Positions 2-35,137 of a stretch of DNA of 64,000 nucleotides are shown here, one piece after another. Where the stretch lies: positions 128,001 through 192,000 of the IMG/VR virus record IMGVR_UViG_3300028048_000040. One strand, 5' to 3'. This stretch comes from a virus. Lineage: Duplodnaviria; Caudoviricetes. The position numbers and the translations under genes were made by a program. The notes under the pieces are model-generated. The model did not search any database. It saw nothing but the letters and a program-made list of their open reading frames with translations, and had not been told where the DNA came from. The stretch's first letter is position 1. Each line of letters starts with the position of its first letter.

Positions 2-2197
2 TCTGTATCTAAGAAACTTATGTATGCTGAAGCATCTATCTTAGGTATCAAAATACCAGTAATAGTATTGCTTTCTTATAATATAGGCTTACAGAAAGTA
101 TTATCTCGTCATAATATCAAATATGAATTTACTGAGAAAAGACCATCTAAAGATCAATTCTATATCAAATTCTCTGATGGATATCTAGTATATGAACCTA
201 AATCTGAAGCAGATAATTTATTAGTAAATGGATTAATGCAATTTGATACATCTGAATATTCTATATCTGATATCAATTCTAAAGACATGTGGATTCCAGT
301 ATTAGATGAATTTGGTGGTAGAGTTAAAGCAGATGGTTTAGATAACTTCTATGATCTCTTTATGGATCCAATTACTACAGAAATTTGTAGACTTACTAAT
401 CTACCAACTGATTATGTAGGTGCTATGCTGTATGCTAATGATCTATTGATAGATAATAAGTTCAATCGTCATACTGATATTACTGGTAATAGATTAAGAA
501 CTAATGAGATTATAGTAGGTCACTTATATCTAGTAACTTCTAGAGCATTTGGTGATTATAGAAAGACTATAAAGAAGAATCCTAACTTAGCTCAGTTTAC
601 AGTAAAGAAATCTGCTGTAATCGATTCTATCTTAACTCACGATCAGACCTCTTCTGACTTATCTACATTAACACCACTTCTAGAATCTGAATCTGGTGGT
701 AAAGTAACATTCAAAGGTCTATCAGGTATGAACTCAGAGAGAGCATTCTCTGTAGATAAGAGAACCTATGATAAGTCTATGCTAGGTATAGTAGGTATTT
801 CTACTGGTTTTGCTACAACTGTAGGTGTTAATAGACAGCTTACTATAGATGCCAATATTAGAAATAAGAGAGGATTTGTTGGTAATACAGAAGCAAAGAA
901 TCTAAATAGTACTAATGGTTTCTCTATGTTTGAAGCATTATCTCCAATGGCTATTAATCATGATGACCCATTCCGTACAGCAATGGCATATACACAAACT
1001 GGTCAACACCAAATGACTACTAGAAAATCTATGCCTAACTTGGTAACCACTGGAGCAGATCAAGCTATCGCTTATCTCACTTCTAATAAATTTGCTTATA
1101 AGTTTAGAGGTAATAGAGGAGTAGTCAAAGAGATCAATGATCAATATATGATTATTGAAGATCAAGATACTAAAGAATGTGAATTTGTTGATCTTAGAGA
1201 AACTATTAGAAAGAATTCTGATGGTGGTTTCTATCTTACTACTAAACTTACAGCTACAGAAGGATTGAAGAAAGGATCTAAACTAAAACAAAATGAAATT
1301 GTTGCATATGATAGGAAGAACTATTCTAAGTCTGTTGGTACTACTGGAGATCCTCACGATATTTCTTATAATATTGGAACTCTTGCTAAAGTAGCTATAA
1401 TGAATACAGATATGGCATTCGAAGACTCTTGTGTAGTAGATGAATATGTATCTGATGCATTGACTACAAATCTATGCTATATGAAAGATATCAATCTAAA
1501 TAAACTCTCAAACGTATATAATCTAGTAAAACCTGGAGATAAAGTAGAAGCAGATGATAGCTTATTAGTATTCCAGGATTCATTTGATGAAGAAGAAGCA
1601 AATGAACTATTAAGAAATATCTCTATGGATCAAGAATTCATTTCAGATATTGGTAGAAAACATATCAGATCTAAAACATCTGGTGTAGTACAAGATGTAA
1701 AGATATATAGAACTTGTGAAATATCTGAACTCTCTCCAACATTACAAAAAATATGTAAAGAACATGATGCCAGAATCAATAAACTCAAGAAAGCTATGAG
1801 AGATAATAAGATAGAAAGGGAATATACTCTAGAACCTACTAAGAAATTAGAGCAAACTGGTAAACTAAAAGGTTTAGAAGGTGTAAGAATAGAGATCTAT
1901 GTAAAAGCAGTAGATAAGTTTGGTATCGGTGATAAACTTGTATTCTATCAAGCTTTAAAAGGTGTATGTTCTTATACTATTCCTAAAGAAGTATCTGGAT
2001 ATACGGATTATAGACCTAATGAAAAAGTAGGAGCTTATCTATCTCAGATTGGTACATTCAAACGTATGGTTCCTTCTTGCTATCTATTAGGATTTACTAA
2101 TAAACTATTAGTAGAACTTACTAGACAATGCCAAGAAGAACTGGGAATCAAATGGAGACCAATACAAGAAATAATGGAAGATGAACCAGAAGAATAA
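2..2197 (+). CDS. Phage multisubunit RNA polymerase beta-like subunit (5'-truncated by window; probably the large virion-RNAP beta piece)
   Basis: HDDPFRTAM..Q..Q..P.LVTTG, DMAFEDS, GIGDKL..ALKGV and IGTFKRM match RpoB motifs HDDANRALM, GYNFEDS, GDK..GNKGV and LGVPSRM. The frame is open upstream of nt 20 and the protein stops before the RpoB clamp region (split subunit). Confidence 0.9.
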   Translation, partial: SVSKKLMYAEASILGIKIPVIVLLSYNIGLQKVLSRHNIKYEFTEKRPSKDQFYIKFSDGYLVYEPKSEADNLLVNGLMQFDTSEYSISDINSKDMWIPVLDEFGGRVKADGLDNFYDLFMDPITTEICRLTNLPTDYVGAMLYANDLLIDNKFNRHTDITGNRLRTNEIIVGHLYLVTSRAFGDYRKTIKKNPNLAQFTVKKSAVIDSILTHDQTSSDLSTLTPLLESESGGKVTFKGLSGMNSERAFSVDKRTYDKSMLGIVGISTGFATTVGVNRQLTIDANIRNKRGFVGNTEAKNLNSTNGFSMFEALSPMAINHDDPFRTAMAYTQTGQHQMTTRKSMPNLVTTGADQAIAYLTSNKFAYKFRGNRGVVKEINDQYMIIEDQDTKECEFVDLRETIRKNSDGGFYLTTKLTATEGLKKGSKLKQNEIVAYDRKNYSKSVGTTGDPHDISYNIGTLAKVAIMNTDMAFEDSCVVDEYVSDALTTNLCYMKDINLNKLSNVYNLVKPGDKVEADDSLLVFQDSFDEEEANELLRNISMDQEFISDIGRKHIRSKTSGVVQDVKIYRTCEISELSPTLQKICKEHDARINKLKKAMRDNKIEREYTLEPTKKLEQTGKLKGLEGVRIEIYVKAVDKFGIGDKLVFYQALKGVCSYTIPKEVSGYTDYRPNEKVGAYLSQIGTFKRMVPSCYLLGFTNKLLVELTRQCQEELGIKWRPIQEIMEDEPEE

Positions 2198-3588: not shown

Positions 3589-5370
3589 ATGCCTATTCTT
3601 AAGAAATATCAGGCTAGTCCATTTTATATAAATATAACTGTCCCTCAAGTTATACCTATTATTATGGGTGCACTTATAATAAAAGGAAATGTTAGACTAG
3701 TTCCACCTCATCAAACATCTTCATATCTTCCTGGAAATGTTACATTAATTCCAGAAGAATTTACACCAGAAGAATTTGATGGTACGGTTACAATTAAACT
3801 AAGTGAATATAAGCCAGGAAGTCCTGATGATATTATAATAGAAGGTAGCTCATTAGCAGGTTCTGTTACTTTTACTAATACTAAAGTTCCAGTACAATCT
3901 AATGACATAGTATGCCATGTAGAACTTGTGGATACATATTATAGAACTAATTTGCTAGATCCTATTGAATTAATAGTTCCGCAAACAACTGATTGGGATT
4001 TCCCAACAGATCCTACTGTAAAAGAGTATGATTCTACTAAATATGGTAGAGCTGATATAAAAGGTTCAGGTACTTTGGTAGCATATGACTATGAAGATCC
4101 TAATAATGATATATCTGGTTCTGGTAGATTGATGTATGAGTGGTATAAGAAATTTGTAATGGTTGGTAAAGTTACTCTTCCAAAAATAGAAGAATCTATG
4201 GATATAGATGCATCTGTAAGTATTCTACCAGAGGATTATGAACAAGATTTAATAGATATAGCAGTAAGAGTTCCTAGATATGATGTAAGTGTATACATTG
4301 ATACTAGGGTTATAGTTCCCAAGTTTAGAGTTCAATATACTATTCCCATAGATATAGAAGTTGTATCAGGATATTGTACATGTTTACCAGTAGATATAGA
4401 TGTAGTTAATGAATGTATTTGGGAATTTGATGGTAACGTATCTCTTCCTAAAATAGATACTGAAGACGATATAGATTCTACTGTTACTCTATTACCAGAA
4501 GCATATGAGGATATAGATTGTCATGCTAAATTAAATATATTAGCTACATATAGAGAGTTTGATTGCTCTGGATTCTTGATTGGTAGAGTTATAGATGAAT
4601 TTGGTATAGAAATAACTACAGAAGAATATGAAGATCCTATATATGATTTCAGTGAAGATATTATGGATTGTGTAGTACACTTTGGTGGTAAATCTCTATT
4701 TGATTTTGATATAACTGTTAAAACTGAAGCTATTCCTTTATTTGATTTTAAAGAAGATCTTATTGAAGGTATGGTTCATTTAAGAGATTATAAGAGAATT
4801 GGTATTGTTGTAGATCCTAGATGGAACTATGATGCTTATGTATTCAAATCTTCTCTATTAACTCTATTTGATAAATACTATGATAAGACTGTATTAGATA
4901 TAGTTTATGGTGGTAATCCTAGATCAGATTGGGATATAGAACATCTTGGATATGTATTCCATAATAAGCTTACTAAAGTTCCTATTATATTTGATCCTAT
5001 TCATCCAGATCACACTAAGAGAACTATAGAGCATTATATCTATCATCTATCTGATACTCCTATAGATGTACCTATAACAAAAGTATTCTTATTTACAGAT
5101 AGACCAGATTATATTGCTTCCAATCCATTATCTCTAATTACTCAGTTCTGTAAAGATAACTATATAGACTTTGCTATTATTACATCTAGTGGAGAGTTTA
5201 TAGATTATCATGATAATCAAGCTTTCTCTACTACAACTAATCCATTAAGAACTGAACCTCATTCAGTAATGGGTCCATTATCAGTAATGCCTATGGATCA
5301 TTTTAATAAAGTTGCTGAACCTAGTGATCCTAAACACCCATATTATCATCCTACTAAGATTATATATTAA
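3589..5370 (+). CDS. Hypothetical acidic beta-rich protein, probably virion-associated
   Basis: ORF track 3559..5370; AAGGAGG at 3571 favours ATG 3589; internal G.V.LPKI..DID..V.LLPE.YE repeats; late promoter. Confidence 0.6.
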   Translation: MPILKKYQASPFYINITVPQVIPIIMGALIIKGNVRLVPPHQTSSYLPGNVTLIPEEFTPEEFDGTVTIKLSEYKPGSPDDIIIEGSSLAGSVTFTNTKVPVQSNDIVCHVELVDTYYRTNLLDPIELIVPQTTDWDFPTDPTVKEYDSTKYGRADIKGSGTLVAYDYEDPNNDISGSGRLMYEWYKKFVMVGKVTLPKIEESMDIDASVSILPEDYEQDLIDIAVRVPRYDVSVYIDTRVIVPKFRVQYTIPIDIEVVSGYCTCLPVDIDVVNECIWEFDGNVSLPKIDTEDDIDSTVTLLPEAYEDIDCHAKLNILATYREFDCSGFLIGRVIDEFGIEITTEEYEDPIYDFSEDIMDCVVHFGGKSLFDFDITVKTEAIPLFDFKEDLIEGMVHLRDYKRIGIVVDPRWNYDAYVFKSSLLTLFDKYYDKTVLDIVYGGNPRSDWDIEHLGYVFHNKLTKVPIIFDPIHPDHTKRTIEHYIYHLSDTPIDVPITKVFLFTDRPDYIASNPLSLITQFCKDNYIDFAIITSSGEFIDYHDNQAFSTTTNPLRTEPHSVMGPLSVMPMDHFNKVAEPSDPKHPYYHPTKIIY

Positions 5371-5375
5371 ATAAC

Positions 5376-5408
5376 TAGGAGAGCTCATATGAGCTCTCCT
5401 ATATTTTT
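5376..5408 (+). terminator. Intrinsic terminator
   Basis: taggagagctc-atat-gagctctccta followed by a T-rich run. Confidence 0.8.
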
Positions 5409-5431
5409 GTAATTATTAAAAATTTTAAGCA

Positions 5432-5446
5432 TATATTATATCAGTG
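5432..5446 (+). promoter_or_regulatory. Early-type promoter TATATTAT-atca-GTG
   Basis: gcatatattatatcagtga, identical to the site at ~25990. Confidence 0.8.
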
Positions 5447-5640
5447 AAAGAACTAAGGACTATAGGAGACAAATCCGGTCCAGGCTCGGAAAGTGCAGCA
5501 TACCCACGCTGAGGTGGTAGCCTTTGACCACAAAAAGGGAGATAGCACTTGCGTGCTAGAAAGGGGTGAGTCCATTGAACAATTTAATTTAGTAATTTAA
5601 AGAAAAGAAGGTGTAGTCGAGCCTTCCTTTCTTTTTTTAT
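5444..5640 (+). ncRNA. Candidate structured ncRNA or attenuator leader upstream of thyX
   Basis: GC-rich stretch with no convincing ORF between an early promoter and a U-tailed terminator (5600-5640); several short hairpins and a long-range ggact/agtcc pairing. Confidence 0.6.
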
Positions 5641-5699
5641 TTTATTCTTCAAAAGACAATAGAATAGCATTTATTCTATTTATAAGGAGAGGATTCAAT

Positions 5700-7031
5700 A
5701 TGAACATTCTAAACAAAATCAAAGATTTTTTTTCTGGTAAACAGAAAGAAGAAGAATTATTCAGTAAAGCAGAACAAGTAGATCGATCATCTGTTCATGT
5801 ACTAAGTGTTTCTCCTAATGTATATTTAGCATGTAGAGCTGCTAAATTATGCATTGGTAAAAAAGTAAATGGTACTATTACAGATAGAATGAAGTATATA
5901 GAGAAAATAGTAGGTATGGGTCATGAGAGTATTCTAGAACATACCAATGTGGTTGCTATGATTATCTATTATAATCCTATCTCTAAACCAGAACAATTTT
6001 CTGAAATCGTTGCTAATGGTAAGTATTTAGATATTATTCCTAAGCAAGATGGAGAAAAAACTGTTGTTCTTATTGGTGGTTCTATTAGAGCTTATATGCA
6101 TCTAGTAAGAGAAACAGATCAGAATAATGTATATCTAGAAGACATCAAAAAAGTGATGTATCAGTCTATTGAGAAATGTTTCTTGAAATCTCTTATTGAA
6201 AAAGGATTACTTGATGAAGCTGAATGTAACTTCATGACATATGCTACAGTAGATAAACATGTAGAAGATGATCAAGAACCATTACCAGAAATTATAGAAG
6301 ATCCTAAAGAAAAAGAAAGCAAAACTTCTGATCTTATCTATATTACTGATTTTGATAAACTTTATAGCGATGTGGTATTACTTTCTGATAGATATACTAA
6401 GAGAGAAATAGTAAGAATGTGTCACTTTACATTCTTATTCCATGATATTTCTCGTTCTTGTGGTAATCAGTTATGCAGACACCGTAATGGTATTACACAA
6501 GAATCTCAAAGATATGTAACTCATGAATATACTAAAGAGAAAGACTTTATTGATCCTATCAGAATGCAGTTAGATGATAGATATAACAATCTGGCTCCTA
6601 ATCTTATAGAGAAATTTAATAAAGTAGACTTTAAGACTTATAAAGATATGATCTCTGCTGGTATATTTAAAGAAGATGCTAGAGCATGGTTACCAATGAA
6701 TGTTACTACTAAGATTATGATGACATTCAATGGATTTACTTTAGCTAAATTCTTACATCTTAGAACAGCTAAAGGAGCTCAATTAGAGATTAGAAATATG
6801 GCTAATGAAATGGTTCATCAGTTATTTACTAATACAGAAGCATATGTAGACTTTATAAATACAGTATTAAAATTTGGGTATGAAGATGTAAAACCAGCAT
6901 ATACTTCTGATACTATAGATGAAGAAATTGATATTAAAACTGAATCATTTGAAGATTCTAAAATAGACTCTGATGAAGCAAAAAGACTTCTTGAAGTAGA
7001 AGAAGAATATAAGAATTTAGAGAAGAATTAA
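5700..7031 (+). CDS. thyX: FAD-dependent thymidylate synthase, long form
   Basis: GHESILEH, ISRSCGNQLCRHR..QESQRY, KEDARAWLP, LRTAKGAQLEIR. Confidence 0.92.
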   Translation: MNILNKIKDFFSGKQKEEELFSKAEQVDRSSVHVLSVSPNVYLACRAAKLCIGKKVNGTITDRMKYIEKIVGMGHESILEHTNVVAMIIYYNPISKPEQFSEIVANGKYLDIIPKQDGEKTVVLIGGSIRAYMHLVRETDQNNVYLEDIKKVMYQSIEKCFLKSLIEKGLLDEAECNFMTYATVDKHVEDDQEPLPEIIEDPKEKESKTSDLIYITDFDKLYSDVVLLSDRYTKREIVRMCHFTFLFHDISRSCGNQLCRHRNGITQESQRYVTHEYTKEKDFIDPIRMQLDDRYNNLAPNLIEKFNKVDFKTYKDMISAGIFKEDARAWLPMNVTTKIMMTFNGFTLAKFLHLRTAKGAQLEIRNMANEMVHQLFTNTEAYVDFINTVLKFGYEDVKPAYTSDTIDEEIDIKTESFEDSKIDSDEAKRLLEVEEEYKNLEKN

Positions 7032-7082: not shown

Positions 7083-8150
7083 ATGGAAAACAACGAAATC
7101 AAAAACGAACAAGTCAATGAAAGAAAACCTTACTATCGTAAAAACAACTATCGCCGTCATCAGTGGAGAGAAAAACCTCAGGCTATTTCTTATATTAAAT
7201 CCTTTGATAACTTTAATGATGGTTTTACCGAAGTGATTCGGTTTAATCCTGAATTGAAGAACTATTGTGGTGATTTTGGTTCTTATGATGCTGTAATTGC
7301 TTCTATGACCAAAGCGATTAATGATAATATTCCGTCTCCAAATAATATTAACTATCCTAACACTCTTTCTCTTAGTATTGATGCTAATGAAGTAGGATTT
7401 AAAACGGATACTAATATTGCTCTTGGTTGGAGAATTAGATACTCTTATAAAGAAGCTAAGACTTATTATAATTTCCGTGTAACCTTCATCTCTATTCCTG
7501 TATATAAGAATAATACTATTGCAGATATGGTAGAAGCAGGTTGGAAGAAACTTGTAAAGTCTAATCGACAGAATCGTTATTGGAATCATCTCGAAGGAAA
7601 AGATCGTGAAGAATCCAATGAAGGATTTAAAGTAAAAGAACTCATTGGAGAACAGAAGATTTCTACTAATCATTCTATGAGTATGCCTAAAGCATATAAT
7701 GAAGATGAATATGATGATGTAGAAGATTCTGTAGCTGATTTAAAAGAGATTCATACTGCTGATAATACAGTAGATGATGAAGATATTCTCAATCCAGGAG
7801 ATGAAGTTGCTATTATTAGTGATGAATCTGTAGCTGCTGAACTTGGAGTAGATAAAATCATCTTGAATGGTGAAGATATCAGTAAAGAAGAAGCAGCTGA
7901 AAAGATGGAAGAAGTTCTTGATAAAGTAGAAGAGCAAGCAACTTCTGGATATGTAGAATCTAATGATAGTATCTCTGCAACTGCTAACCCTAGTGTATTT
8001 ATCATCAATCACAAAGGTGAACCTCGTGTAATCAATATTGATGCAGATGATATTGCTTATGGTGATATGCTCGTTAATAAAGAAACTGGTTTGATTAGCT
8101 TTGCTGATGGAACTATTTTTGATTATAAGAACTTAAATATAATGCATTGA
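7083..8150 (+). CDS. Hypothetical protein with acidic C-half
   Basis: ORF track 7035..8150; AAGGAG SD favours ATG 7083. Confidence 0.7.
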   Translation: MENNEIKNEQVNERKPYYRKNNYRRHQWREKPQAISYIKSFDNFNDGFTEVIRFNPELKNYCGDFGSYDAVIASMTKAINDNIPSPNNINYPNTLSLSIDANEVGFKTDTNIALGWRIRYSYKEAKTYYNFRVTFISIPVYKNNTIADMVEAGWKKLVKSNRQNRYWNHLEGKDREESNEGFKVKELIGEQKISTNHSMSMPKAYNEDEYDDVEDSVADLKEIHTADNTVDDEDILNPGDEVAIISDESVAAELGVDKIILNGEDISKEEAAEKMEEVLDKVEEQATSGYVESNDSISATANPSVFIINHKGEPRVINIDADDIAYGDMLVNKETGLISFADGTIFDYKNLNIMH

Positions 8151-8232
8151 AATGCATCTCCTTAATTCATAACATTTAACACCTCATAACTTACCCCTAG
8201 AGCTTAATTGCTCTAGGGGGTGTTATTTGTTT
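8142..8232 (+). ncRNA. Candidate anti-SD sRNA or 3'-UTR element
   Basis: AACT-N6-TAA at 8130-8142, atgcat hairpin, CUCCUU and CACCUC seeds, terminator hairpin 8194-8219. Confidence 0.4.
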
Positions 8233-8296
8233 GCCGAGACATAGGTGTAAGTCTAGACTAAATAAAAGACTAGGAGAAAGGAGGAAATTGATAATT

Positions 8297-11200
8297 ATGG
8301 CAAGCAATAGCATTGTAGACTATCTTAAAAATGTAGGTCAATCTGTTAAGTTTGCTGCTATCGAAAGTGTAACTGAAAAGACGCCTAATCTACAAAAAGT
8401 ATTTGGTGAAAACAACAAGAAATATGTTCAAGAACTCTATAAAGATGTGAATCAACATAGACAAGAATTGAATATGATTGATCGCATTAGAAATGCGACT
8501 GTTTTCAAACAGATATCTGTAGGTTGGGATAATCTAAAGGATTCTATCAAAACTGGTAAATTCAAGGATGATTCTAGAAGTACTGGTTTTGATGAGATGG
8601 AAATGATGTTCGCAATGATGGGAGATGACTTCTTAGGTGGAGATTCAGATCTTATCGAAGCTGAAATGAATGGAGAAGAAACAGGCTCAACTAACGATCA
8701 TCGAATCCGTGGTATACCAGAAATCACTAAAGGTGATGCTCTTGTTGCAACAGCATCAGCTACAGCAACAAAGAATGCAGCCTCTACTATATCTAAAGCC
8801 ATTGTTAGATCTGCTGAATTAACAGATATAACTGCAAGAAAGTCTACAAATTTACAATTAAGGGCCCTGCAACAACAAGCAAACATTTTATCTAGTGGTT
8901 TTCAACAACTATCTAGCTCATTGCATACCATAAATCAATTTAATAATCAAGTTGTCATAACTCATGCTCAAAATAGCAGAATGTTCTTTGAACAAGCCAC
9001 TGCATTAGCTCAAGAGAGAAATGCTATTCTTAGAGAAATGCTAGAAATGCAGCGTGAAACCTTTGGTGCTACAATGAAATCAAATCTGTCTTCTGATGCA
9101 AATGATTTGACTAAAATGAGTAAAATCTTTGATAAAGAAAAAGGATTTGATTTAAGAGCCTATATGAGCTTAATGCAAAAGAGAATGAAAGAAACTCCTA
9201 TTGGAATGATGATGATGTCTATAAAGATGCTTCCAATGATGATAGGAGAAGTAGTTCAAAATCCATTGCATTATATTGCTAAAATGGGTATAGATTCAAT
9301 CATAGATAATAGTCTTAAGAAAGCTATTTATAATATAGATCAGTCAATAAGTGGAATGATATCTACTGGACTAGCTAAACTTGCTAATTATGGTAAAGAT
9401 AAAGCTACTAAGAATACATTGTTAGGTCAAATAGCTAGTTTTTTTGGTGTAAGAAATGAAAATACTAGATTATCTGCAGTAGATACTTCTAAATATAATA
9501 AAGAAGCAATTCAATGGAATGGCATTGCTCAAAAAGCTTTAGTAGAAGTTATACCAGGTCATTTAAGAAGAATAGAAGCTGCTCTTACTGGTGAAGGAGA
9601 AAGAGTATTCGATCTCCAATCTGGTAAGTGGTCTACAATGAAAAAAGTAGCTAATATAGAAAAAGATATAGATCGCAAAGTATTCAAAGAAACTTTCTCT
9701 AAAGAGAAGAATCAACTTCTTAATATGATGCAATTTAAAAATAGAGGAGAAATGAGAGATTGGATTAAAGCTCTTGATAGCTTCTTTAAAGGAGTTAGAA
9801 ATAGAGGTATGGTGGATTATAACCATATTAGAGAGAAATCTAGTGAATATGGAGATAATGAAAATATAGTTAAAGCTATAGCATACATGATCCATTCTGG
9901 TGGATTAGATTCTTCTCAGATATTCAATCTTACTAATAAAATCAATGAAGGTAATGCTAAGAAAGCTGCTATGATAAGAGATCTTAGCCCAGCTAATCAA
10001 TCTCTTGTAACTGAAGCAGTTAATAATTCTTATAATGCTAAATGGGCTGCTGGTACTGGATCTATATATGGTGCAAATGGTAAACAGCAAGTAGATAAAA
10101 ATGGTAGATGGTTATCAATGCCATTTAATGATCTTACTAAACTTACTGATACCAGAGGATACACATTATATGATTATCAATATAATATTCTTCAAACTCT
10201 TTTAAATATGCAAAGATCTGGTGGATTAGGTGGTGGAAGACCTGCAGGCCCTGTAGGACCAGTTGGACCATCTAATGGTGGTATACCAATTCAGAATCCT
10301 CAGAATATAATAGCTGGTGGATTGGTAAGAACTGGAAATACTTTCACTAATGCTGTTCCATCAGAAGCAAAAGATCCAAATTCTGCTCAAAGACAGCATG
10401 CTGCTAATCTAGTACAAAAAGCTCAAGAAAAATCAATATCTAGAAGAGCTCTTTATCATCCAGATAAAAGTGGATTAGATGAAGAGCAAAAACTCGACTT
10501 CTCTGTAGAAAGAATTAAAAATGCAAGTAAAGAAGAATTAGAAGAAATGATAGCTCATATGTATTTTGCTGGTCAAACTGGTAAAGAATATAGAGCTAAT
10601 ACTAAAGTAGCATCTTCTGGTGGAATATTTGGAGATCTTAAATCTGCTGCTAGAGGTTTAGGAGTTTCAAGTATTGATAGCTTCATGGCAGATATGCAAG
10701 AAGCAACTTCTATTGCAGATAAATTCAATGTTGTTGGCGAAGCATTAAGATCAATGACTTCTGCCCCTCAAAAGATATTAACTTCAGTTCTTACTGAAGC
10801 AGATAGATTCATGTATGAATTTATGTTTGGAAATCCTGTAGGCACTGAAAAGGATGAGAATGGTAAACCGATAGAAGGATTCTTTGGTAAAGTTACTCAT
10901 GAATTTGGTAAAACCATGGATAATCTCAATAATAAATTCAATGAGTGGTTTAAAGATACATTCAAAAAAGGTGCTGGTGGAATAGCAGGATTTTTCAAAG
11001 GAGTTCTTGAAGATTATTTCAATATTGATGTAGATGAAAAGGTTGAACAGGCTAAACGCCACGTGAAGAAATATACTAATAAAGTCAAAAAAGGTGCATT
11101 ATCTGCTGGTGCTGATCTATTTGGTATTGCCAAAGAAGCAGTATTAGGAACAGCTCAAGATATGGGTATTTATGAACCAGATGAAGAGGAGGAACAAAAA

Positions 11201-14200
11201 AAAGAGCAACAAACTCCTCCTACAGCATATAGAGGAATTAGAAAATATGATTCTAAATATGGTATAGGTGTAGTAGGTCCTGGTGAAAAAATAATATCTC
11301 CAGGTAGAGGAAAGGTATTAGATAATACTACTGGTTATAAAGTATATGCTTTGCAATATGGAGATTCTGTAATACCTTCTTATCTAAATACATCTAATGC
11401 AGGCAGAGGCAGAGTAACTCCTCAATCTCTTGCATCTCAAGAATATAATGAAAAATCTTTAGCTAAAAGTATAGCAAGAGGCAATGTACCAATATTAGGT
11501 ACATTTAGTGGTGCTAATGCATCATGGAAAGATATAGGTGGATGGATAGGAGAGCTTAAACGTAAAGAGCAAGAAAGATTTGAGCATGGAGATGGAACTC
11601 CTAAATTAGAAGATGCTAAATCAAAACGTGGATTCTTCCATAACTTTGTAAATTGGATGACTGGTTATAATGAACCAGAATTTACTGAAGATCAAATCAA
11701 AATGCAAGAGTTCATTAAAGATATAGTAAATAGTGCTACTAAAGCTGCTATTGAAGCTAATGGTGGAGCATTTGAAGATGAAGAATCAAAAGGAAGATCT
11801 ATTACACAAGCTGGCTTTGAAATGGCTGGTAAACTAAGAAGAGGTAATGTAGATCTTAATACTAATGAATTCCAAGAAGCATTAAAAGAAGTTCTCGCTA
11901 TGAGTGAGAATATCAAAGATCCAGATTTTAGAGATACACTTCAATTTATTTTAAATACTGCTGGATATAAAGGTGAATTTGATACTGTAGATGATTCTAA
12001 AAAAGTAAGAAGATCAAGAAGAAATAATCTATTTGTTGGTGTAAATCAATTTATGGATAATGCCTTTGGTATTGATTCTAAAAAAGCAATAGATACAGCA
12101 GATAAAACTATTAGAAAGAATCTGCCAGAACTCGCTAAAGGTGGAACATTTGGTGCTTTATTAAGTACAGTTCTTCCTCTTGGTGGTCCTTTAATGGGTG
12201 CACTTGTTGGTGCTGGAGCTTCTGTATTAACTAATAGCAAATCTTTCCAATCCTATATGTTTGGAACAGAAATAACAGATAAAGATGGAAATGTAATAGA
12301 TAGAAAAAATGATGGTATTGTATCAAGAAAAACTGTAAAAGCTATTCAAAGATATTTACCAGATGCTAAGAAATATGGTATTACAGGTGCATTAGCAGGT
12401 CTTGTTCTTCCTTTTGGTCCACTTGGTGGTTTGATGATTGGTGCTGGTGCTTCTTTCTTAAAGAACAACAGTAGATTCCAAGAATTTATGTTTGGTGAAG
12501 AAGGAGGCTTAATCAATAAAGATAGAAAAGAAAGAATCAAGAGAGCTCTTCCAAATATAGGTGTCGCTACACTAGGAACGTTATTCCTCGGACCTTTTGG
12601 TATCGTAGGTAACGCTATGCTTGGTGCTGGTCTAGGTATTTTATCTACAACAGAATCATTTAAACGTATTATGCTCGGTTCTAAGGATCGTAATGGTATA
12701 AGACGTGGTGGTTTAGCTGATATTATTAGAAGGCAAATTACAGACCCATTCAAGAAATCAATGCAAGATATTCAAACTAGATTAGCTGCTTGGTTCAAAG
12801 ACGATCTATTCAATCCTGTAGCTAGAACTATTAAACCACTTGGTAGAAATATTACTGGTGAAATATCTAGACTCCTTAGATGGGGAGCAGGTCAAATCTT
12901 TGGTAAGAAAGATGAAAAAGAAAAATCAATATTTGGTAAATATGGACTCAAATCTGTAGATAGAATGCTGGGATTGGTTCGTAATGCTGGTGGTCTAGGT
13001 AAATTTATTACTGGTGGAATAGGCAATGTAATTGGTGCTGGTGCACATGCACTAGAAAATCAAGTAGGTAAGAGATTAGAAAGAAGAGCTTTCAGAAAAG
13101 GATACTATGAAGATGGTACTCTTGCTGATGAAAGAATGGCTCGTGGTGCTGAATTAGGTCTTGATGCAAATAATGCAGATCAATATGCATTAGGTGGTTT
13201 AGATCAGTTAATGGCTAAACTAGAACAGGGGCCAAATGCTCAGAAGAACCTAACATCTTTAGCAGCTGCATTAAGTGCTATTCAATCAAGAACTGAAGGT
13301 ACAGACGATAACCTCAATAGACAAATAGCTGCAGAAAGAGATAATATTATTTCTAATTCTGAGAAGCTATATTCTGATTATCTAAAGAAGAATCCAACAG
13401 AAAAGAATCCTCATGATCTATATCGAAAAGTAGAATCTATGAGAGATAAAATGCTCAAGATGGCAAAAGCAGAAAACTTTAATCCAGAAATAGCTCAAGG
13501 TGAATTTGCAAAAGAATTAGCTAAATCTGATCTTCCTAGAGAGATAAAAGATCAAATGATGGAATTGTTCTTAGATTCTGGTGGCTCTATAGCCAAATTC
13601 CAGAGTGCTAAAGATAATCTAAGTAAACGTAACTATGCTGAAGCAGAAATAGCCAAACTATTAGGATATAATGTAGACGAACAGCAATATGATAAATTAG
13701 ATGAAAGTGTCAAAAAACAAATAGAAGCAATAAAGAAACACCCAGAAGCAATATCTGCTGTTAATAATGATATTAGAACTCTAAAAGAAAGAGCAAGCTC
13801 TGATGAGTCTGCTGCAGCAAAACTAAAAGATCAAGTAACTGATCCTGGAGATCTGTCTATAATCAATAATATGGAAAAACAGGTAGATCAGAATGATGTT
13901 ATCATTGCCACTTTAGAGCATATAGCTAATATACTACAGACTAATGATCCCAAGAAAAGAGAAGAGCTTCAAGCTCAATTTAAAGATACTCTAGATAAAT
14001 ATAGAGGTACTGGAAATAGCGATAAGATAAATAATGCTATTGCTAATGCCAAAATAGCATCTCAAAGAGCTAAGAATCAAAAAGACAAAGATGATGCTAA
14101 AGTAGAACAAGGTAAAGATTTAAATAAAGAAATCTATGATGATTCTTACTTTGACCCAGATAAAGCTATCAATAATCCAGAGATAAAAGCTAAATTCGAA

Positions 14201-17200
14201 AAAGATCATGGAAAATTACTTGAAAATTGGCACGATCAATACCAGAAAGGTCTGCTATCAACAGAAGACTACTATCGTAGAAGAAATGAGTTATTAAAAG
14301 GTACATGGGATGAATACCATGGCAATACAACAATGGGTGCTATTAAGCACGATATAAAACTAGTTGGTGGTAAAGTTGCTAAAGCAGCTAATTCAATTAC
14401 AGAGAAAAGAGAAAAAGCTCTAGATTATATAGACGAAAAGACTACAGACTTCTTAAATGAAGCTCCTGATAAAATAAAAGAAAATATAGTAGAACCAACA
14501 GCAGAAGCTTTTGGTATGGTATCTAAACCTATCATAGCAGGTTTCCAGATGCTAGGTAAAGCAGTAATTGGTTTAGCTAGAAAGATATCTGGAGAGTATG
14601 AAACAATTGCTGATAAAGCAAATCCGATGTCAAATATTGAGAAAGATCAAACAGACAAAAATATTCCTCCTACAGCTACATATGGTTTACCATTCTTTGG
14701 TACATTTGCTGGTGGTACTGCTGCTGCAGGCGCTGCCAAATCAGGTGGTGGATCATTAATAGGTTCTGTTCTCAAAGGTGCTCTTGGTGGAGCTAAAGAC
14801 TATTTTACTGGTGGATCAAGTGATAAGAAAGAAGAACCTTCAAACAATGTAAAAGAAGTTCAACAATCTACTCCTTCTGCAGGAGAAGTCAAATCTACAG
14901 CTGGTCTCGTGGCATCCTTCGACCACTCTAAGGCGAATGGTGGTGCTCCCGATATCAATGCTAAAGATAATGTATCTTATACATCTGATGCTGATGGTAA
15001 CCTAGTGGCTATCGTAAAAGGGCCAGATGGAACACCAATGAAATTAAAGAACAAAGATAATGCTGAAATTGAAAAGAAACATCAACAAGAATTTGAATTC
15101 AAAGAAAGATCTGCAAATGCATTAGAAGCAATTGCTGCTAGATTAGGTGCCAAAGTTAAAGGTGTGGGTAAAGCCATAGCTGATGCTGGTGGTGGACTAC
15201 TTGGCGGTTTGCTAGATTCTATAGGTGGACTCATAAACACATTGTTCCTTGGTCTCCCTGTAGGTACATGGTTGATTAGCAAACTTAAATCTTTACCAGG
15301 CAAATTATTCAAATTATTAGGAAAACTAGTTCCAAATTCAATCAAAAAATTCGGTGCCGATTTAATGGCAAAAGTTGCAAAACTTCCTGGGAAACTAGGA
15401 GAAATGGTAGGAAAAGGTTTCGCTTCTGTTAAATCATTAGTAGGAAAGAAACTAGGTCAAATAGCTCCTTCACTTACCAAAAACTTAGTAAAATTATTAT
15501 CAAAGAGTAGAGTAGGTGCGCTATTACTTGGTGGTGGTGCAGTTGCTACTGGTGCTCTCAAAATGTTTGGTGTTATAGATGATGATGATAAAACTCCATC
15601 ATTACCTCCTGGATCAAAAGTGATAGAAAAAGAAAATGGTTCAAAGGTAGTTGTAGATGAAAATGGTAAAGAACTAGATATTCCAGCAGAAGAAGTAGAA
15701 TCTGAAGAAGATTCTGGTATGAGTGCTGGTAGTCTTGCTAAAACAGCAGTAGCTGGTTATGTTGGTCGTGAAGCTGCTAAAAAAGTAGGATTAAAGAGTG
15801 CAGGTGGTAGAGCTGCTGGTGCAACACTTGCTAATATAATTGCTAATGGTGGAGAAGTAGATGCTGGTACTATAGCTGATTTTGGTATGTCTTATGGAGC
15901 TGAAAAGCTAATAGATAAATTTAGTGGAAATAAAGTACCAACAACTGGTTTAGAAGCAGAAGGTCCTAAAAATAGACCTGCAGGTCAATATAGAAATGCT
16001 ATAGAAGCTAAGAAAGCTGAGATTGCTCAAAGAAAAGCAACAGAAAAGAGTATAGCTCGTCATCAAAGAAAACTTGCACAACAAGCTGCAAAGAGTGGAG
16101 CCAATGTAATTGAAAACAATGCAACTAATCCATCCATTTGGGATAAAGCTAAAAATGCTGCTAGCAGTCTAAAAGATTGGGCATCTAGTAAATTCTCAAC
16201 TGGTACAGAATCAGCCAAAAGTATATTCAAGACTGGAATGAATTCTGAAGTAGCTAATAAGCTCAAAGATACTACTTCTTTGGTTAAAGATACTTCTAAA
16301 CAAGGTGTAGAGGCTGCTGTTGGTAAAATTAGATCTGCTATGCAAACTGTAGTAGAAGCTGCAGGAAAATGGCTACCAGGCAAGACTGTTGGGGAGGCTG
16401 TATCTAATTTCTGTAAGAAAATTATGGAAAAGGTCACATCTTCTCAAGGTATGCAAATACTCCAAAAGAAGTTATCTCAGCAAGCTGCTACAGCTGCTGG
16501 AGGTGCTGCTCTTGGTATTGGTGCCGTTGCAATAGGAACTATGTTCTGCGTAACTTCTTTTATTAGTGGTTACAATCATGCAGCAGAACAATTTGAAGTT
16601 CAAGAGTCTGTTGTTACTAATGGTATGAAAGTAATATCTGGTTTAGTTCATGCCATTCATTGTGCTATTGGATTAATTCCTATAGTTGGATTAGCTTTTG
16701 CATTGATAGTATCTCCAAAACAGATGCTTGATTATGCTATAGACTTAATTGGTCCAGCAGTAGGATTATCAAGACAAGATTTACAAAAATTACAAAAATC
16801 AGGTCAAAGTGTAGTAGAAAATAATGTTAAAGCTGCTCAAGAATATGGTAAAGGCAATCCTGAAATCAATGATAACCATTCTGGTGGTGGATTCTTTGAT
16901 ACAGTTAAAGAAACTGCTGCTGGTGCATGGGATAAAGTTAAAAGCGTTGCATCCTCTGCTTGGGAAGGAGTTAAATCTGGAGCAAGCTGGGTAGGAGATA
17001 AAATTTCAAGTGCTGGAAGTTGGATCAAGAATAAACTTACTGGTCAAGGTAAACACTCTACTTATGGTAGAGGAGGATTATTTGGAACTGGATTCCACTC
17101 TCAATTAGATCCTGCTATTGCAGGTATGGGATTCAATGTATCTGGAGATACAGAAAAACAAACTGTAAAAGATTCTGCTTGTGGTCCAATGGCTATGGCA

Positions 17201-20200
17201 AATGCTCTTGAATCAGTTGGTGTATCTGTAGATGATAAAGATATTATTAATAAAACTAAAGGTGGAAAAGAGAAGAATGGTGGTACACCAGACTATGTAC
17301 TCAATAGATACGCTAATAATCAAGGAATCGCTACTAAATCTGTAGGAACATCTGAAAAAGATCTTGCTAACTCTCTTAAATCTGGTAAACCATTAGTACT
17401 AATGGGTCAGAATAATATGGGAGAAACAGATAAAGATCCATTTGCAGAAAATCCACATTACGTTACTGCTACTGGACTAGATAAAGATGGTAATGTAATA
17501 ATAAAAGATCCAGAATCATATCAACCAGTTAAGACTTATAAACTTAGAGATATTGCTCAAAAGACTACTATTGCTACTGAATTAAGTAAAGACAGAGAAC
17601 CTAAATTCTCTGAAGGTGCAAGTTTAAAAGAAATAATGGCATGGAAACTAAGACATGCTGGAAGATCAAAATGGGGTAGAGAAAGATCTAATGGTAATGC
17701 TGAATTACTATGGAACCATCTGAAATCTAAAGGATTATCAAATCAAACCATATCTGGCATGTTGGGTAATTTCGCTGCTGAATCTGGTTGGAGATCTTCT
17801 GCTGTACAGAGTCCATCAGGAAAACCAATAGATTCGGATACAATGACTATAGATGGGAAAACAGGATATGGACTAGCTCAATGGACAGACAAGGGTAGAC
17901 AGCAAAGATTGCGCAGTTTCTTACAATCAAAAGGATTACAAGATTCAGATTATAAGGGTCAATTAGATTTTGTTCTTTCTGGTCAAGATGGTGATGTATC
18001 TAATCTATTCAAAGAAATGGACGGGATGACTCCAGAAGCAGCTGCAGAAAAATTCTGTGCAGCATATGAGCGTCCAGCAAAAGATAACAATGGTGTTTGG
18101 TTAGGACTTGCTACAAGAAAACAAAGAGCAAGAGAATTATTTCAAAAAGAAGGTAAAGGAGTAACATCAAGTAGCTCCTTCTCAGGAGGTTCGAGTTCAT
18201 CTTCTGGAGCTGCCGAGATTGCTCAAGAAGAACAAGAACCTGGAATTCTTGGAGCAATTGCTCAAGTACTTAATAAAATAAGGTCAATAACAGATATATT
18301 TGGTACTAATTCTTCATCATCTAGTGGGACTCCTGGTTCTATTAGTGGTGGATCTGTAAATTATCAAGATGCTGCTAAAAAGATAGTAGAATGTGCATTA
18401 GCATATGAAAAATCTAAAATTCAATACGGTCAAGTTAATCCTCCTTCTCCTCCAAAAGACGGTGGACAGTGTGACTGCTCTGGTATGGCTCAAAACTGTT
18501 ATAGAGCAGCTGGAATAGAAATTCCTAGAACAGCTGATATTCAATGTGCTTTCTTTAAGAAGCATAATGCTACATTTACCGGAGATATGAAACAGCTCAA
18601 AGCTGGTGATCTAGTATTTACTAGTGATTCTAGTGGAGAAGTTGATCACGTATTCGTATATATTGGTGATGGTAAAGCTGTCAACCTAGGTGGAAGAAAT
18701 GGCAAAGGTTCAAATGGTGGAGATGCTCGTCTATATAATGGATGGGATCAAATCAAAGCAGGTATTGAATGGCACAAGGGCCCAGCAACATTTGGTAGTC
18801 TAGAAAAGCTTTGTGCTGCTACTGGTCAAACTCAAGCTACAGGCACTGGTTATTCAGGATATGGACCTAAAAGATCTTCAACTAATAGAATTATCATTCA
18901 TCACACTGCTGGAGCTAAAGGTATTGATCCAAGTGCAGCAGAAATAGATAAGATGCATAAAGGAAATGGTTGGTCAGGAATTGGCTATCATTTTGTTATT
19001 CGCAAAAATGGTACTATAGAAAAAGGTAGAGCTGAAGATGAACAAGGAGCTCATGCTGAAGGTGCCAATAAAGATTCTATTGGTATTCATGTAGGAGGAA
19101 ACTTCGAATTAGAAAGCCCTACTCAACAACAAATTGCTTCATTAGTAAAATTATTACAACAACTTTGCAAGAAATACAATATTCCTATTGATAGAAAACA
19201 TATTTTAGGCCATAAAGAAGTAGGTCAAACTGCATGCCCTGGTGCAAATCTTTACAGTCAATTAGATTCGATAGTTGCTCAAGCAGCTGGAGGAAAAGGA
19301 AAATCAAGATTTTGTAAAGACAAACCCAATGTGCCAGATATACTAAAAGAAAAATCAAATAAATTTGGTAAAGGTAAATCAAAATATGGTAGAAGTATAT
19401 TCAGTGATATATCAAATTGGTGGAATACTAGAGATCAAAGAAATGCTAGAAGATATGCTGGTCAAGATGATTCTTTAGCAGCAAGATATGGACATGATTC
19501 AGAAAATGAAGGATATGTTGCTCCAACAGTATCTACAACAGATCAAATGGCAGATCAAAGAGATGAAGAATTTAGTGGTCAAGAAAAAATAAGAACAATG
19601 TCTTCTGAAGAACTTGCTGAAGCAGAAGAAGCTGGAAATGTTATTAAATCTATAGCTCAAAAGAAATCTACTGGAGAAGATGCTACTAATGAAGAAATTC
19701 AAAAAGCTGCTAAAGAAGGAAACTTAGAAACTGGAGATCAAACAGTACAAAATATAACCGAGCAGCAGCAAAAAGCTTCTCAAACTAATCTAATGGATAA
19801 ATTCTTCGGTGGTGTTGGCGCTAGATTAGATGCAATTGGAGCTAAATTAGCTCCTATCAAAGATATGATTAGATCAAAACTTGGTTCTGTTATTGGAGAT
19901 AAATTTGGCAAATTTGCTGATTTAATTGGAGATCCTCTTAAACATTTTGGAGGTCTTTTTGGTTCAAATAATAGTAGTTCTTCAAGTGCTGATGGTTCAC
20001 ATGGCGGTGGAGGAGGAACCTTTAATGGTGATGCTACAGCTATACCTGCTACTGGTTCTGCTGCCGCTGCTTTAAAGAAAGCACTCAATTGTGAAATCAC
20101 TAGTCAATTTGGTCCACGTAGTAGTGGAGTGCACCATGGTATAGATTATGGTATTGGTACAGGTACTCCTGTTCCTACTGTAACTGATGGTGTGATTGAT

Positions 20201-25910: not shown

Positions 25911-26044
25911 GAATATTGCATTTTGGGAAAATTACTGTGATGAAAAGTGTTTAATTGCATCAAAAATAGGTATAAGTTCATTATTTCAAGCATATATTAT
26001 ATCAGTGATAAAAGCCATATAATTAAAGGAAGGAGGTAAAAATT

Positions 26045-26770
26045 ATGGCTAAGAAAAAAGCTGAACCTCAGGTTCAGAAGCTGGAACCAAATCCAGCATT
26101 AGATATTCTGGCTCTTAACTTGTTTGAAAAAACAAATGGGTCAGAAACAATGACTCCTGAACAACTTAAGGAGGCAATTAATAGAGTTGAAACTATAGTC
26201 AAACTCTATGCTAGAAGAATGTCTGAATGCACAGATGTTCAACGGTTACTTATCACAAAATGGTTTTCTGATACGACGATTAAAGAAGAAGATCGTATCA
26301 GAGTACTGGGGGTTGACCAGTACAATGAATGGTTAGCAGTTACCAAAAAAGCTGCAGAAGAATTGGCGGTAACAAAGTCGCCAGCTTCGGAAAATAACTC
26401 TGAAGCAGCAGCGACAATAGAAATGAATGGTACTGGTACCATGAAAGTGGATACCAAAGAGAAGGAGGAAACTAAAATGGCTATGTCTAAAGAAGAAATT
26501 CAGGAACTCGCAGCAGCAATGGCAGCAATGCAGCAGGGAGGCAAGGAAGAGAAGAAAGAAGACTCCAAAAAGGAGCAGGGATTCTTTGATGAGATGTGCG
26601 GCACGGTAAAAGAGGCAACCGATACCACTGTAGGTAAGGTAGCCCTTATCGCAGGCGGCGCAGCAGCAGGCATTTATCTGAAGAAGAAATTCTTCGACGA
26701 GCCAGCTGATTCCGACTGGGCGTCTGGTGAAACCCAGATCGCGTCCCAGGGAGCATCTATGTTCTTCTAA
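26045..26770 (+). CDS. Early hypothetical protein with C-terminal hydrophobic segment; possible internal start at 26477
   Basis: Early promoter 25993-26007, AGGAGGT SD, terminator 26786-26820; higher GC than flanks. Confidence 0.75.
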   Translation: MAKKKAEPQVQKLEPNPALDILALNLFEKTNGSETMTPEQLKEAINRVETIVKLYARRMSECTDVQRLLITKWFSDTTIKEEDRIRVLGVDQYNEWLAVTKKAAEELAVTKSPASENNSEAAATIEMNGTGTMKVDTKEKEETKMAMSKEEIQELAAAMAAMQQGGKEEKKEDSKKEQGFFDEMCGTVKEATDTTVGKVALIAGGAAAGIYLKKKFFDEPADSDWASGETQIASQGASMFF

Positions 26771-34617: not shown

Positions 34618-34711
34618 AACTTATAATTTATAATTGTATATTATAGTCGTGATAAAGTTAGAAGCTCATCATGGTGGTGAGCTCATGTTTAAAAAAGAAA
34701 GGAGCTTTATC

Positions 34712-35137
34712 ATGGAAAACAAAATTTACAGAGACCACCCTGCACATGTATCCGCAAAAACGGCAGATATGATTCATATTTTAAATCATATCTGGAGTGA
34801 GGGCTATATCGACGATCACGATAAGAAGTGGGTTCGTCCATCCGACATCTATCAAGTTGGATTTTGGACCAATTTCCGTGCCGAACAGATTGTTCCTGTA
34901 TTCAAAGGGTCTTTCTGCATCAATCCATTTTATGTGGATGAAGAGGATGGGAATATCCATCTGGATACCTGCTCTTGTGGCGGGACCGTAATAGGCGGTG
35001 ATATAGACCGCTTTAATCATGAAATGAGCCCAAATAATGGGGAGGGGTGGCATACATTTGAACATCTATTTCCCCTCACTGAAGAGGGTTGGAACCGGAT
35101 CAAGGATCGCAAGATGTTCCAAGTAGAAGAAGAATAA
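34712..35137 (+). CDS. Early hypothetical protein (GC-richer)
   Basis: ORF track 34634..35137; promoter 34637-34651 and GAAAGGAG SD favour ATG 34712. Confidence 0.7.
   Translation: MENKIYRDHPAHVSAKTADMIHILNHIWSEGYIDDHDKKWVRPSDIYQVGFWTNFRAEQIVPVFKGSFCINPFYVDEEDGNIHLDTCSCGGTVIGGDIDRFNHEMSPNNGEGWHTFEHLFPLTEEGWNRIKDRKMFQVEEE

Follow-up and report, generated by a model that had tools for sequence, protein, structure and literature searches.

The DNA analysed here, referred to as the window, is a stretch of 64 kb that corresponds to bases 128,001-192,000 of an IMG/VR record. The source record is 342,328 bp in length, is rated complete by CheckV and has a GC content of 31.6%. A fragment of an RNA polymerase beta subunit is encoded at window positions 20-2197 (Pfam RNA_pol_Rpb2_6; PHROG 'RNA polymerase beta subunit', 1e-122), and the 342-kb genome is that of a jumbo phage with a phage-type multisubunit RNA polymerase, which is encoded as fragments. 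The thyX gene (5700-7031, + strand) was identified from a Pfam Thy1 match of 1.4e-36. Its product is 443 aa long with the Thy1 match restricted to residues 233-375, and this long form of ThyX is kept across many jumbo-phage contigs at 30-47% identity. Further downstream, window positions 8231-21772 hold a single ORF of 4513 aa, and in its homologues in relatives a single protein combines peptidase C39-like, phage lysozyme, NlpC/P60, amidase_2 and M23 domains (precomputed Pfam list).

Between thyX and the upstream gene, which encodes a 603-aa protein, the base composition changes sharply. GC content is 0.51 at 5450-5549, compared to approximately 0.30 on either side and 0.316 for the whole genome. 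Of the 70 gaps in the genome that span at least 150 nt and are free of ORFs of at least 90 aa, this one reaches the highest GC in any 60-nt stretch (0.58). A first-pass annotation, made from the sequence alone, had described a balanced-GC stretch in a very AT-rich genome at this site, and these values (51% against 31.6%) bear that out. It had also proposed that the patch encodes an RNA with its own promoter, that a U-tailed terminator follows, and that thyX has a separate promoter; all three are corroborated by the features listed in Table 1.

The promoter of the RNA belongs to a recurrent class. The fuller motif, AAAWTTT-N5-11-TATAYWMT-N3-8-TGA, was found at approximately 15 sites in the genome, mostly before genes, compared to 0.35 in shuffled sequences, and 5419-5447 is one of these sites. 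The shorter form, TATATTATA-N3-(A/G)TGA, occurs approximately 30 times, in intergenic positions preceding protein genes. At the present locus TATATTATA-N3-GTGA occupies 5432-5447 and the transcript probably starts near 5443-5447. The RNA would end at an intrinsic terminator, whose hairpin was detected at 5607-5626 with a T run, and the predicted energies of this hairpin range from -12 to -20 kcal/mol across variants; in the window's own copy (W) the stem is AU-rich with one mismatch (-13.5 kcal/mol). The terminator stem is altered on both sides between W and the relatives L100 and L106. Its 8-nt loop, GUAGUCGA (window 5612-5621), is the same in L014, L100, L102 and L106 despite the two-sided changes in the stem, and a conserved loop inside a changing stem is unusual for a plain terminator. 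The block upstream of thyX contains a palindrome, AATAGAATA-GCAT-TTATTCTATT, in all relatives whether or not they carry the RNA, and the right half of this palindrome resembles the promoter variant TATTCTATTGA.

Table 1. Features of the RNA gene and its borders, in window coordinates.
Feature	Position	Strand	Details
Upstream terminator hairpin	5376..5401	+	ends the 603-aa gene; left cassette border; kept in relatives with and without the cassette
RNA promoter	5419..5447	+	AAAAATTTT, then TATATTATA (5432-5440), then N3-GTGA
P1, 5' hairpin	5457..5481	+	outer stem GGAC/GUCC, inner stem GGA/UCC, loop GACAA(A)
P2 5' strand	5483..5496	+	GGCUCG-GA-AAGUGC; pairs with 5545-5557
Internal loop strand and P3 5' strand	5497..5505	+	AGCAUA and CCC; AGCA and CC(C) in all three tip versions
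Variable tip	5506..5536	+	type A in W: GUGGU-loop-ACCAC plus flanks
P3 3' strand, loop strand and P2 3' strand	5537..5557	+	GGG, AGAUA and GCACUU-G-CGUGCU
3' tail	5558..5577	+	Shine-Dalgarno-like purine run AGAAAGGGGUGA, then invariant CCAUUG (AUU at 5574, UUG at 5575)
Mini-ORF, unconserved	5574..5600	+	UUG frame of 2-5 codons, AUU frame of 4-8 codons; AU-rich spacer
RNA terminator, intrinsic	5601..5639	+	stem 5601-5632, conserved loop GUAGUCGA, T run; right cassette border
thyX promoter/RBS block	5640..5699	+	AAAGACAATAGAATAGC...TATAAGGAGAGGAT; outside the RNA gene; kept in cassette-free relatives

Homologues and fold of the RNA

No known RNA family had been recognised by eye, and the covariance-model search agrees with this: at Rfam 15 gathering thresholds there were no matches in the 64-kb window, nor in the relatives L014 and L007. 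When the 371 nt from 5350-5720 were searched at E up to 10, only terminator-like chance matches outside the GC-rich core were returned. ARAGORN detected no tRNA or tmRNA genes in the window, blastn in distant mode found no match to the RNA among GenBank phages, and the phage's own genome holds no second copy.

Eight copies of the RNA were found in all: W, one in the IMG/VR record L007, and one in each of the six ENA/Logan contigs L014, L100, L101, L102, L103 and L106, which were traced from ThyX and from the 603-aa protein encoded upstream. R1, a covariance model based on the first three copies, recovers the remaining ones at 1e-8 to 1e-22. Run over 41 related jumbo-phage records, R1 detected only the window and one relative and nothing in the 39 others, which carry relatives of ThyX. 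Pattern scans returned two chance matches in the JGI metagenomes, both in GC-rich coding DNA, none among the 185,579 genomes of prokaryote species, and in IMG/VR nothing beyond the relative already known. As R1 and the pattern scans add nothing beyond close relatives, the predicted RNA family is confined to one narrow clade of jumbo phages. The genomes of this clade are approximately 340-355 kb, are uncultured and have approximately 31% GC; for several of the relatives the sample carries the label gut metagenome, and the sample names in some cases look like those of rumen studies. Within the clade the flanking DNA is 75-95% identical, and the RNA overall is not more conserved than its flanks.

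The RNA is predicted to begin with a hairpin, P1, which is followed by a long bulged hairpin at 5483-5557, in which P2 encloses an internal loop (AGCA/AGA), a three base pair helix (P3, CCC/GGG) and a tip. The seven further copies supply two-sided changes in P1. Its outer stem occurs as GGAC/GUCC, GGGC/GCCC and GAGC/GCUC, two of the pairs each standing as GC in four copies and AU in three, and its inner stem varies on both sides (GGA/UCC, GAU/GUC, GGAU/GUCC and CGGAU/AUCCG). The covariation score of P1 is 0.116 compared to 0.066 for shuffled alignments, a value reached by one of 500 shuffles, and it stems from few events, all eight copies being close relatives. The comparison of copies thus points to a structure that is kept by compensatory change, at least for P1.

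P2 and P3 are never altered on both sides, and their support comes from changes that are compatible with G-U pairing, from a common minimum free energy (MFE) fold and from replacements that are limited to the tip. Across copies P2 reads GGYUCG-GA-AAGUGY with GCACUU-G-CGYGCU, on which RNAalifold and the folding of single sequences agree. There are three versions of the tip: the GUGGU/ACCAC hairpin in W, L007 and L014, a bare loop of 7-9 nt in L100-L103, and a longer, different hairpin in L106. Despite these unrelated tips, each of the six complete variants has the fold comprising P1, P2 and P3 as its MFE structure or no more than 1 kcal/mol above it. That the tip alone is replaced, with both flanks kept, counts towards the fold because a real long hairpin predicts exactly such a pattern. 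All one-sided changes (C-to-U in P2, A-to-G beside P2, and a U-G in P1) fit G-U pairing solely when read on the + strand, which is therefore taken as the RNA strand. The MFE z-scores of the core range from -1.6 to -2.4 on this strand, so that the thermodynamic support alone is modest.

The original observation was right in part. The GC patch, the promoter, the terminator and one helix, GGAC/GUCC at 5457-5481, are real, and this helix covaries among the copies; most of the other helices proposed with it are not retained. A GUGGU/ACCAC pairing is present in one of the three tip versions and absent from the other two. The AGGCU/AGCCU and CCUUU/AAAGG helices, the CCAC-GCUGAG-GUGG hairpin and a long-range pairing of GGACU at 5457 with AGUCC at 5569 are not kept in relatives. 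The proposed UAGCAC-UUGC-GUGCUA hairpin shares its 3' strand with the better-conserved P2, and a U-to-C change in L014 and L106 turns one of its pairs into an A-C mismatch; in P2 the same change falls at a position that is already U-U. A likeness to the T-loop modules of RNase P and T-box RNAs had also been suggested; there is no Rfam match to either, and the GCUGAG loop on which it was based is deleted in L007. Readings of the conserved internal loop as RNase P-like, T-box-like or a K-turn were likewise rejected or found no support.

Protein-coding explanations of the patch were considered on both strands. A gene on the minus strand was rejected: there the changes that give G-U pairs would produce A-C mismatches, and relatives do not keep the 40-aa frame intact. 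On the + strand a 22-codon frame starting with GTG is broken in L007 and L100. Indels of 1, 2 and 5 nt break the frames across the copies and no protein-coding frame is conserved.

Distribution of the cassette and its relation to thyX

Five relatives, L104, L105 and L009-L011, have empty sites in which the intergenic region is just 92-101 nt long and consists of the upstream terminator, approximately 20 nt, and then the thyX block AAAGACAATAGAATAGC...TATAAGGAGAGGAT. By their upstream proteins, L104 and L105 belong to one 90% cluster with L100 and L102, two contigs that do have the cassette. The borders ...CTCTCCTATATTTTT and ...TTTTTTATTTTA... are common to filled and empty sites, and at filled sites the cassette is placed exactly between ...CCTATATTTTT and ...TTTTTTATTTTA...

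The RNA lies directly upstream of thyX and on the same strand in five of the seven complete loci. In the other two, L014 and L007, a second, unrelated GC-rich unit is located between the RNA and thyX (L014:2700-2935 and L007:2746-2925); this unit is absent from the window and has no Rfam match in either contig. In L014 the second cassette comprises a TATATTATA-N3-GTGA promoter of its own, a GC-rich body of approximately 190 nt and its own terminator, and behind GGTGGA it contains a 19-codon ORF rich in Cys and Arg (MAALKCYCPC...); the ORF in L007 is a different one, 16 codons long and rich in Lys. A covarying hairpin and homologous terminators are common to both cassettes. Three independent metagenome contigs (L012:1-63, L013:1-62 and L015:1-33) end 30-60 nt upstream of thyX, and these ends look like assembly breaks at a variable spot, pointing to samples in which cassette states are mixed.

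Pairing that could control the terminator was searched for in each variant. The best upstream pairing of its 5' arm amounts to -4 to -8 kcal/mol and is differently placed in each variant, so that no conserved antiterminator was found, and the 3' tail of the RNA as an antiterminator for the 3' arm was discarded for want of covariation.

The first-pass annotation had offered two interpretations, a stand-alone non-coding RNA or a ligand-sensing attenuator of early thyX expression, and had asked whether homologues always precede genes of nucleotide metabolism. The former agrees with the recurrent promoter and terminator, the lack of a conserved ORF and the compensatory changes in P1. The latter is not supported: homologues are not always tied to thyX, as the cassette is absent from five relatives with the same thyX block and is separated from thyX by the second cassette in both L014 and L007, three unrelated versions of the tip replace one another, and there is no consistent antiterminator. 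The internal loop is conserved and might in principle bind a partner. Because the cassette may be absent, because a second one may intervene, and because an antiterminator was not found, this is best read as a stand-alone accessory sRNA gene and not a thyX riboswitch. The resemblance to nucleotide and folate riboswitches (THF, ZTP and 2'-dG; Rfam 15) is that of a structured, GC-rich RNA with a terminator upstream of a thymidylate synthase gene; unlike these, it matches no family, is dispensable in close relatives, is separated from the gene by a cassette in some, and has no conserved antiterminator. A tempting but wrong annotation is thereby removed. A guide RNA for the upstream 603-aa protein was also considered and rejected; this protein has no Pfam or PHROG match and occurs in close relatives without the RNA.

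Cassettes of a comparable layout have been described in T4-type phages, where the promoters and terminator stem-loops of PeSL elements (promoter-early stem-loops) border small accessory inserts, and where near-identical phages differ by insertion, deletion or replacement exactly at such motifs (PMC2839356, PMC4122927). Both features are found here, namely promoter and terminator borders and presence or absence between near-identical genomes. The differences are that the payload here is a non-coding RNA as opposed to an ORFan, that the promoter is of another type and that the recombination between repeated motifs and the mini-circles by which PeSLs are recognised would here be putative. Intergenic sRNAs have been mapped in the jumbo phages 201phi2-1, phiKZ and PA5oct using ONT-cappable-seq or dRNA-seq (PMC11512511, PMC7318152, PMC8244752). 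Phage 201phi2-1 has 11 sRNAs, of which three are intergenic, and sRNAs were defined by a start site closely trailed by a terminator (PMC11512511). The RNA before thyX is alike in being a short start-to-terminator unit between the genes of a giant phage with a multisubunit RNA polymerase. It is unlike the sRNAs of these three phages in that it matches none of them in sequence or structure, belongs to another clade and has an exchangeable tip as well as a tail with a strong ribosome-binding sequence; also, theirs were mapped from RNA whereas this one is deduced from DNA. On this comparison it is a candidate new family of phage intergenic sRNAs, a kind already documented in jumbo phages. The production of sRNAs is known for giant phages, and their roles are known for almost none.

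The 3' tail and possible roles of the RNA

The long hairpin is followed by a tail with a purine run that resembles a Shine-Dalgarno (SD) sequence and occurs in three versions, AGAAAGGGGUGA, GGAAGGGAGGAGA and AGAAGGAGGAGA. For all three, the predicted duplex with the 3' end of 16S rRNA (canonical, as assumed for the host) has an energy of -15 to -18 kcal/mol. This is better than 94-99% of the SD sequences of 325 genes of the same phage (median -10) and better than 99.9% of random 20-mers. The invariant CCAUUG sets AUU and UUG 7-8 nt after the SD core, which is a normal spacing for a start codon, and both frames stop within a few codons. The peptides that would be encoded are unrelated among the variants, and short frames of this kind should arise by chance where the sequence is AU-rich. 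The tail drifts in sequence yet keeps its SD character, and nothing inside the RNA covaries with it; as a result, the tail seems to be under selection for pairing with an invariant partner outside the RNA, for which the ribosome would be the obvious candidate. Another potential partner, the CU-rich 3' UTR that follows the thyX operon at 8146-8218, can form 10 bp with the tail including one G-U, which is estimated to be at chance level, and it was rejected.

This arrangement recalls the bar minigenes of phage lambda, which are mini-ORFs consisting of little more than a start and a stop, in which the loading of ribosomes matters and not the peptide. Minigene effects are described in PMC2490762. 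As in the bar minigenes, a strong SD sequence, a start codon inside the 5-9 nt range expected of such minigenes and a stop after a few codons are all present on what is here a predicted phage transcript. Unlike them, the start codon is UUG or AUU and not AUG, the second codon varies (AAC, CAC or GUU), and the module is placed behind a structured body of approximately 115 nt.

Taken together, the most favoured reading, to which we give an even chance as a whole, is that this is an accessory sRNA gene of a narrow jumbo-phage clade that acts in trans and engages ribosomes through its 3' module. Window 5419-5639 would then be a self-contained accessory gene for a non-coding RNA of approximately 190 nt on the + strand, the cassette of promoter, RNA and terminator being located at a variable spot that is flanked by the upstream gene's terminator on one side and the thyX promoter on the other. 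It appears to be gained, lost and partly swapped among near-identical phages, for which recombination at repeated promoter and terminator motifs would be the simplest account. The RNA, as predicted, consists of a 5' hairpin, a long bulged hairpin with the AGCA/AGA loop and a replaceable tip, and a 3' module that is largely unpaired. Once made it would act in trans and not on thyX; the best guess is that the 3' module loads host 30S subunits or ribosomes, either as a minigene or as an RNA that holds ribosomes, and that the structured body may lend the RNA stability or offer a protein a binding site at the AGCA/AGA loop. Such a role in loading ribosomes would compete with the SD-dependent genes of the phage itself. 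A more specific proposal, which we regard as unlikely, is that the RNA is a ribosome trap made by the phage, in which an abundant transcript with an exceptionally strong SD/UUG minigene captures host 30S subunits or drains tRNAs by drop-off, and the hairpin with its swappable tip tunes stability or recruits a protein. If this were true, it would be an RNA-based means by which the phage commandeers or retunes host translation.

The 5' mRNA stabilisers of Bacillus provide a model for a different role, in which the cassette is a cis-acting leader of thyX. It would add a promoter, a 5' hairpin and an SD sequence bound by ribosomes, partial read-through of the terminator would give a stabilised or regulated thyX mRNA, and translation of the AUU mini-ORF might mask the terminator stem. 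This would fit the position of the RNA directly upstream of thyX and on its strand in five of seven complete loci, the AU-rich stem of the W terminator with its mismatch (-13.5 kcal/mol), and an eight-codon AUU frame that stops at 5598-5600, at the 5' arm of the terminator, in W, L014, L100 and L102. This frame ends elsewhere in L106 and L007 however, and in L014 and L007 the second cassette intervenes with a terminator of its own. With or without the cassette thyX retains its conserved promoter block, the upstream pairings do not form a conserved antiterminator (-4 to -8 kcal/mol, the place differing per variant), the tip is swapped in a way that is unlike a ligand pocket, and no riboswitch family matches, so that we view the leader as rather unlikely. 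It is quite improbable that the locus is a relic of a lost accessory protein gene, of which the promoter, leader, ribosome-binding site, start codon and terminator survive, most of the ORF having been deleted, and whose RNA has no function itself. The layout does copy that of the phage's mRNAs, with the same class of promoter, a hairpin approximately 12 nt after the start, a strong SD sequence and a normally spaced start codon. Decayed 5' ends of genes do lie behind similar promoters in this genome (G000 at approximately 125,500-125,600, compared to 304,067), and the level of conservation, which does not exceed that of the flanks, would also be expected of a relic. A functionless remnant does not explain why the pairing of P1 is kept by compensatory changes, why replacements are limited to the hairpin tip with P2, P3 and the AGCA/AGA loop retained, or why the SD sequence stays very strong in three versions without decay; moreover, no version bearing an ORF was found among the 41 related jumbo-phage records or the ENA/Logan contigs, and the body, at 50% GC, is unlike the phage's other leaders.

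The internal loop invites one more alternative, which is very improbable: that the AGCA/AGA loop, together with the three base pair helix and the A-rich loop, imitates a protein-binding core found in some host RNA (domain IV of SRP RNA, circularly permuted, would be an example) and so acts as a decoy that titrates a host or phage RNA-binding protein. As in domain IV of bacterial SRP (4.5S) RNA, an AGCA internal loop is located beside a three base pair helix with an A-rich loop, all within a long hairpin. The AGCA and AGA strands, the CCC/GGG helix and the A-rich 3' strand are common to all versions of the tip, and the order of AGCA, 3 bp, a single A opposite an A-rich strand, 3 bp and a purine loop recalls that of E. 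coli 4.5S RNA. Membership was assessed by the Rfam SRP models, a GNRA tetraloop capping helix 8 and a symmetric AGCA opposite CAGG. The RNA has no SRP match, even at E up to 10 on the 371 nt, the elements run in the opposite polarity with respect to the end of the hairpin, a GNRA tetraloop is lacking, AGCA faces GAUA or GAAG and not CAGG, and two extra nucleotides separate AGCA from the helix; it was rejected as a bacterial SRP RNA.

The preferred reading, an accessory sRNA that acts in trans and engages ribosomes, concerns an RNA that is unusually easy to study, as it is a clean promoter-to-terminator unit with a conserved and strong ribosome-binding module. The empty sites in near-identical phages provide natural knock-outs, and the tip is available in three natural variants. 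The spot before thyX is itself a hot spot at which these phages swap small regulatory cassettes.

Two further groups of loci in the genome were noted in connection with the promoter. One is a set of genes at window 25993-26770 and 34637-35137 and at G000 9170, 29902, 80218 and 105346 (minus strand), which have in common the promoter with GTGATAAAG, a leader hairpin, AAAGGAGG and ...TTTATCATGG. The GC content of the coding sequences in this set reaches 0.54-0.59, which is unusually high for this genome, and they may constitute a paralogous, highly expressed accessory family. The other is located on the minus strand at G000 124,900-125,700, approximately 2.3-3.1 kb before the window, where promoters of the variant TATATACTATTCTATTGAGG are stacked and lead to very short, purine-rich putative transcripts that end at terminators; at least one unit of this stack resembles a degraded version of the gene start that is intact at G000 304,067.
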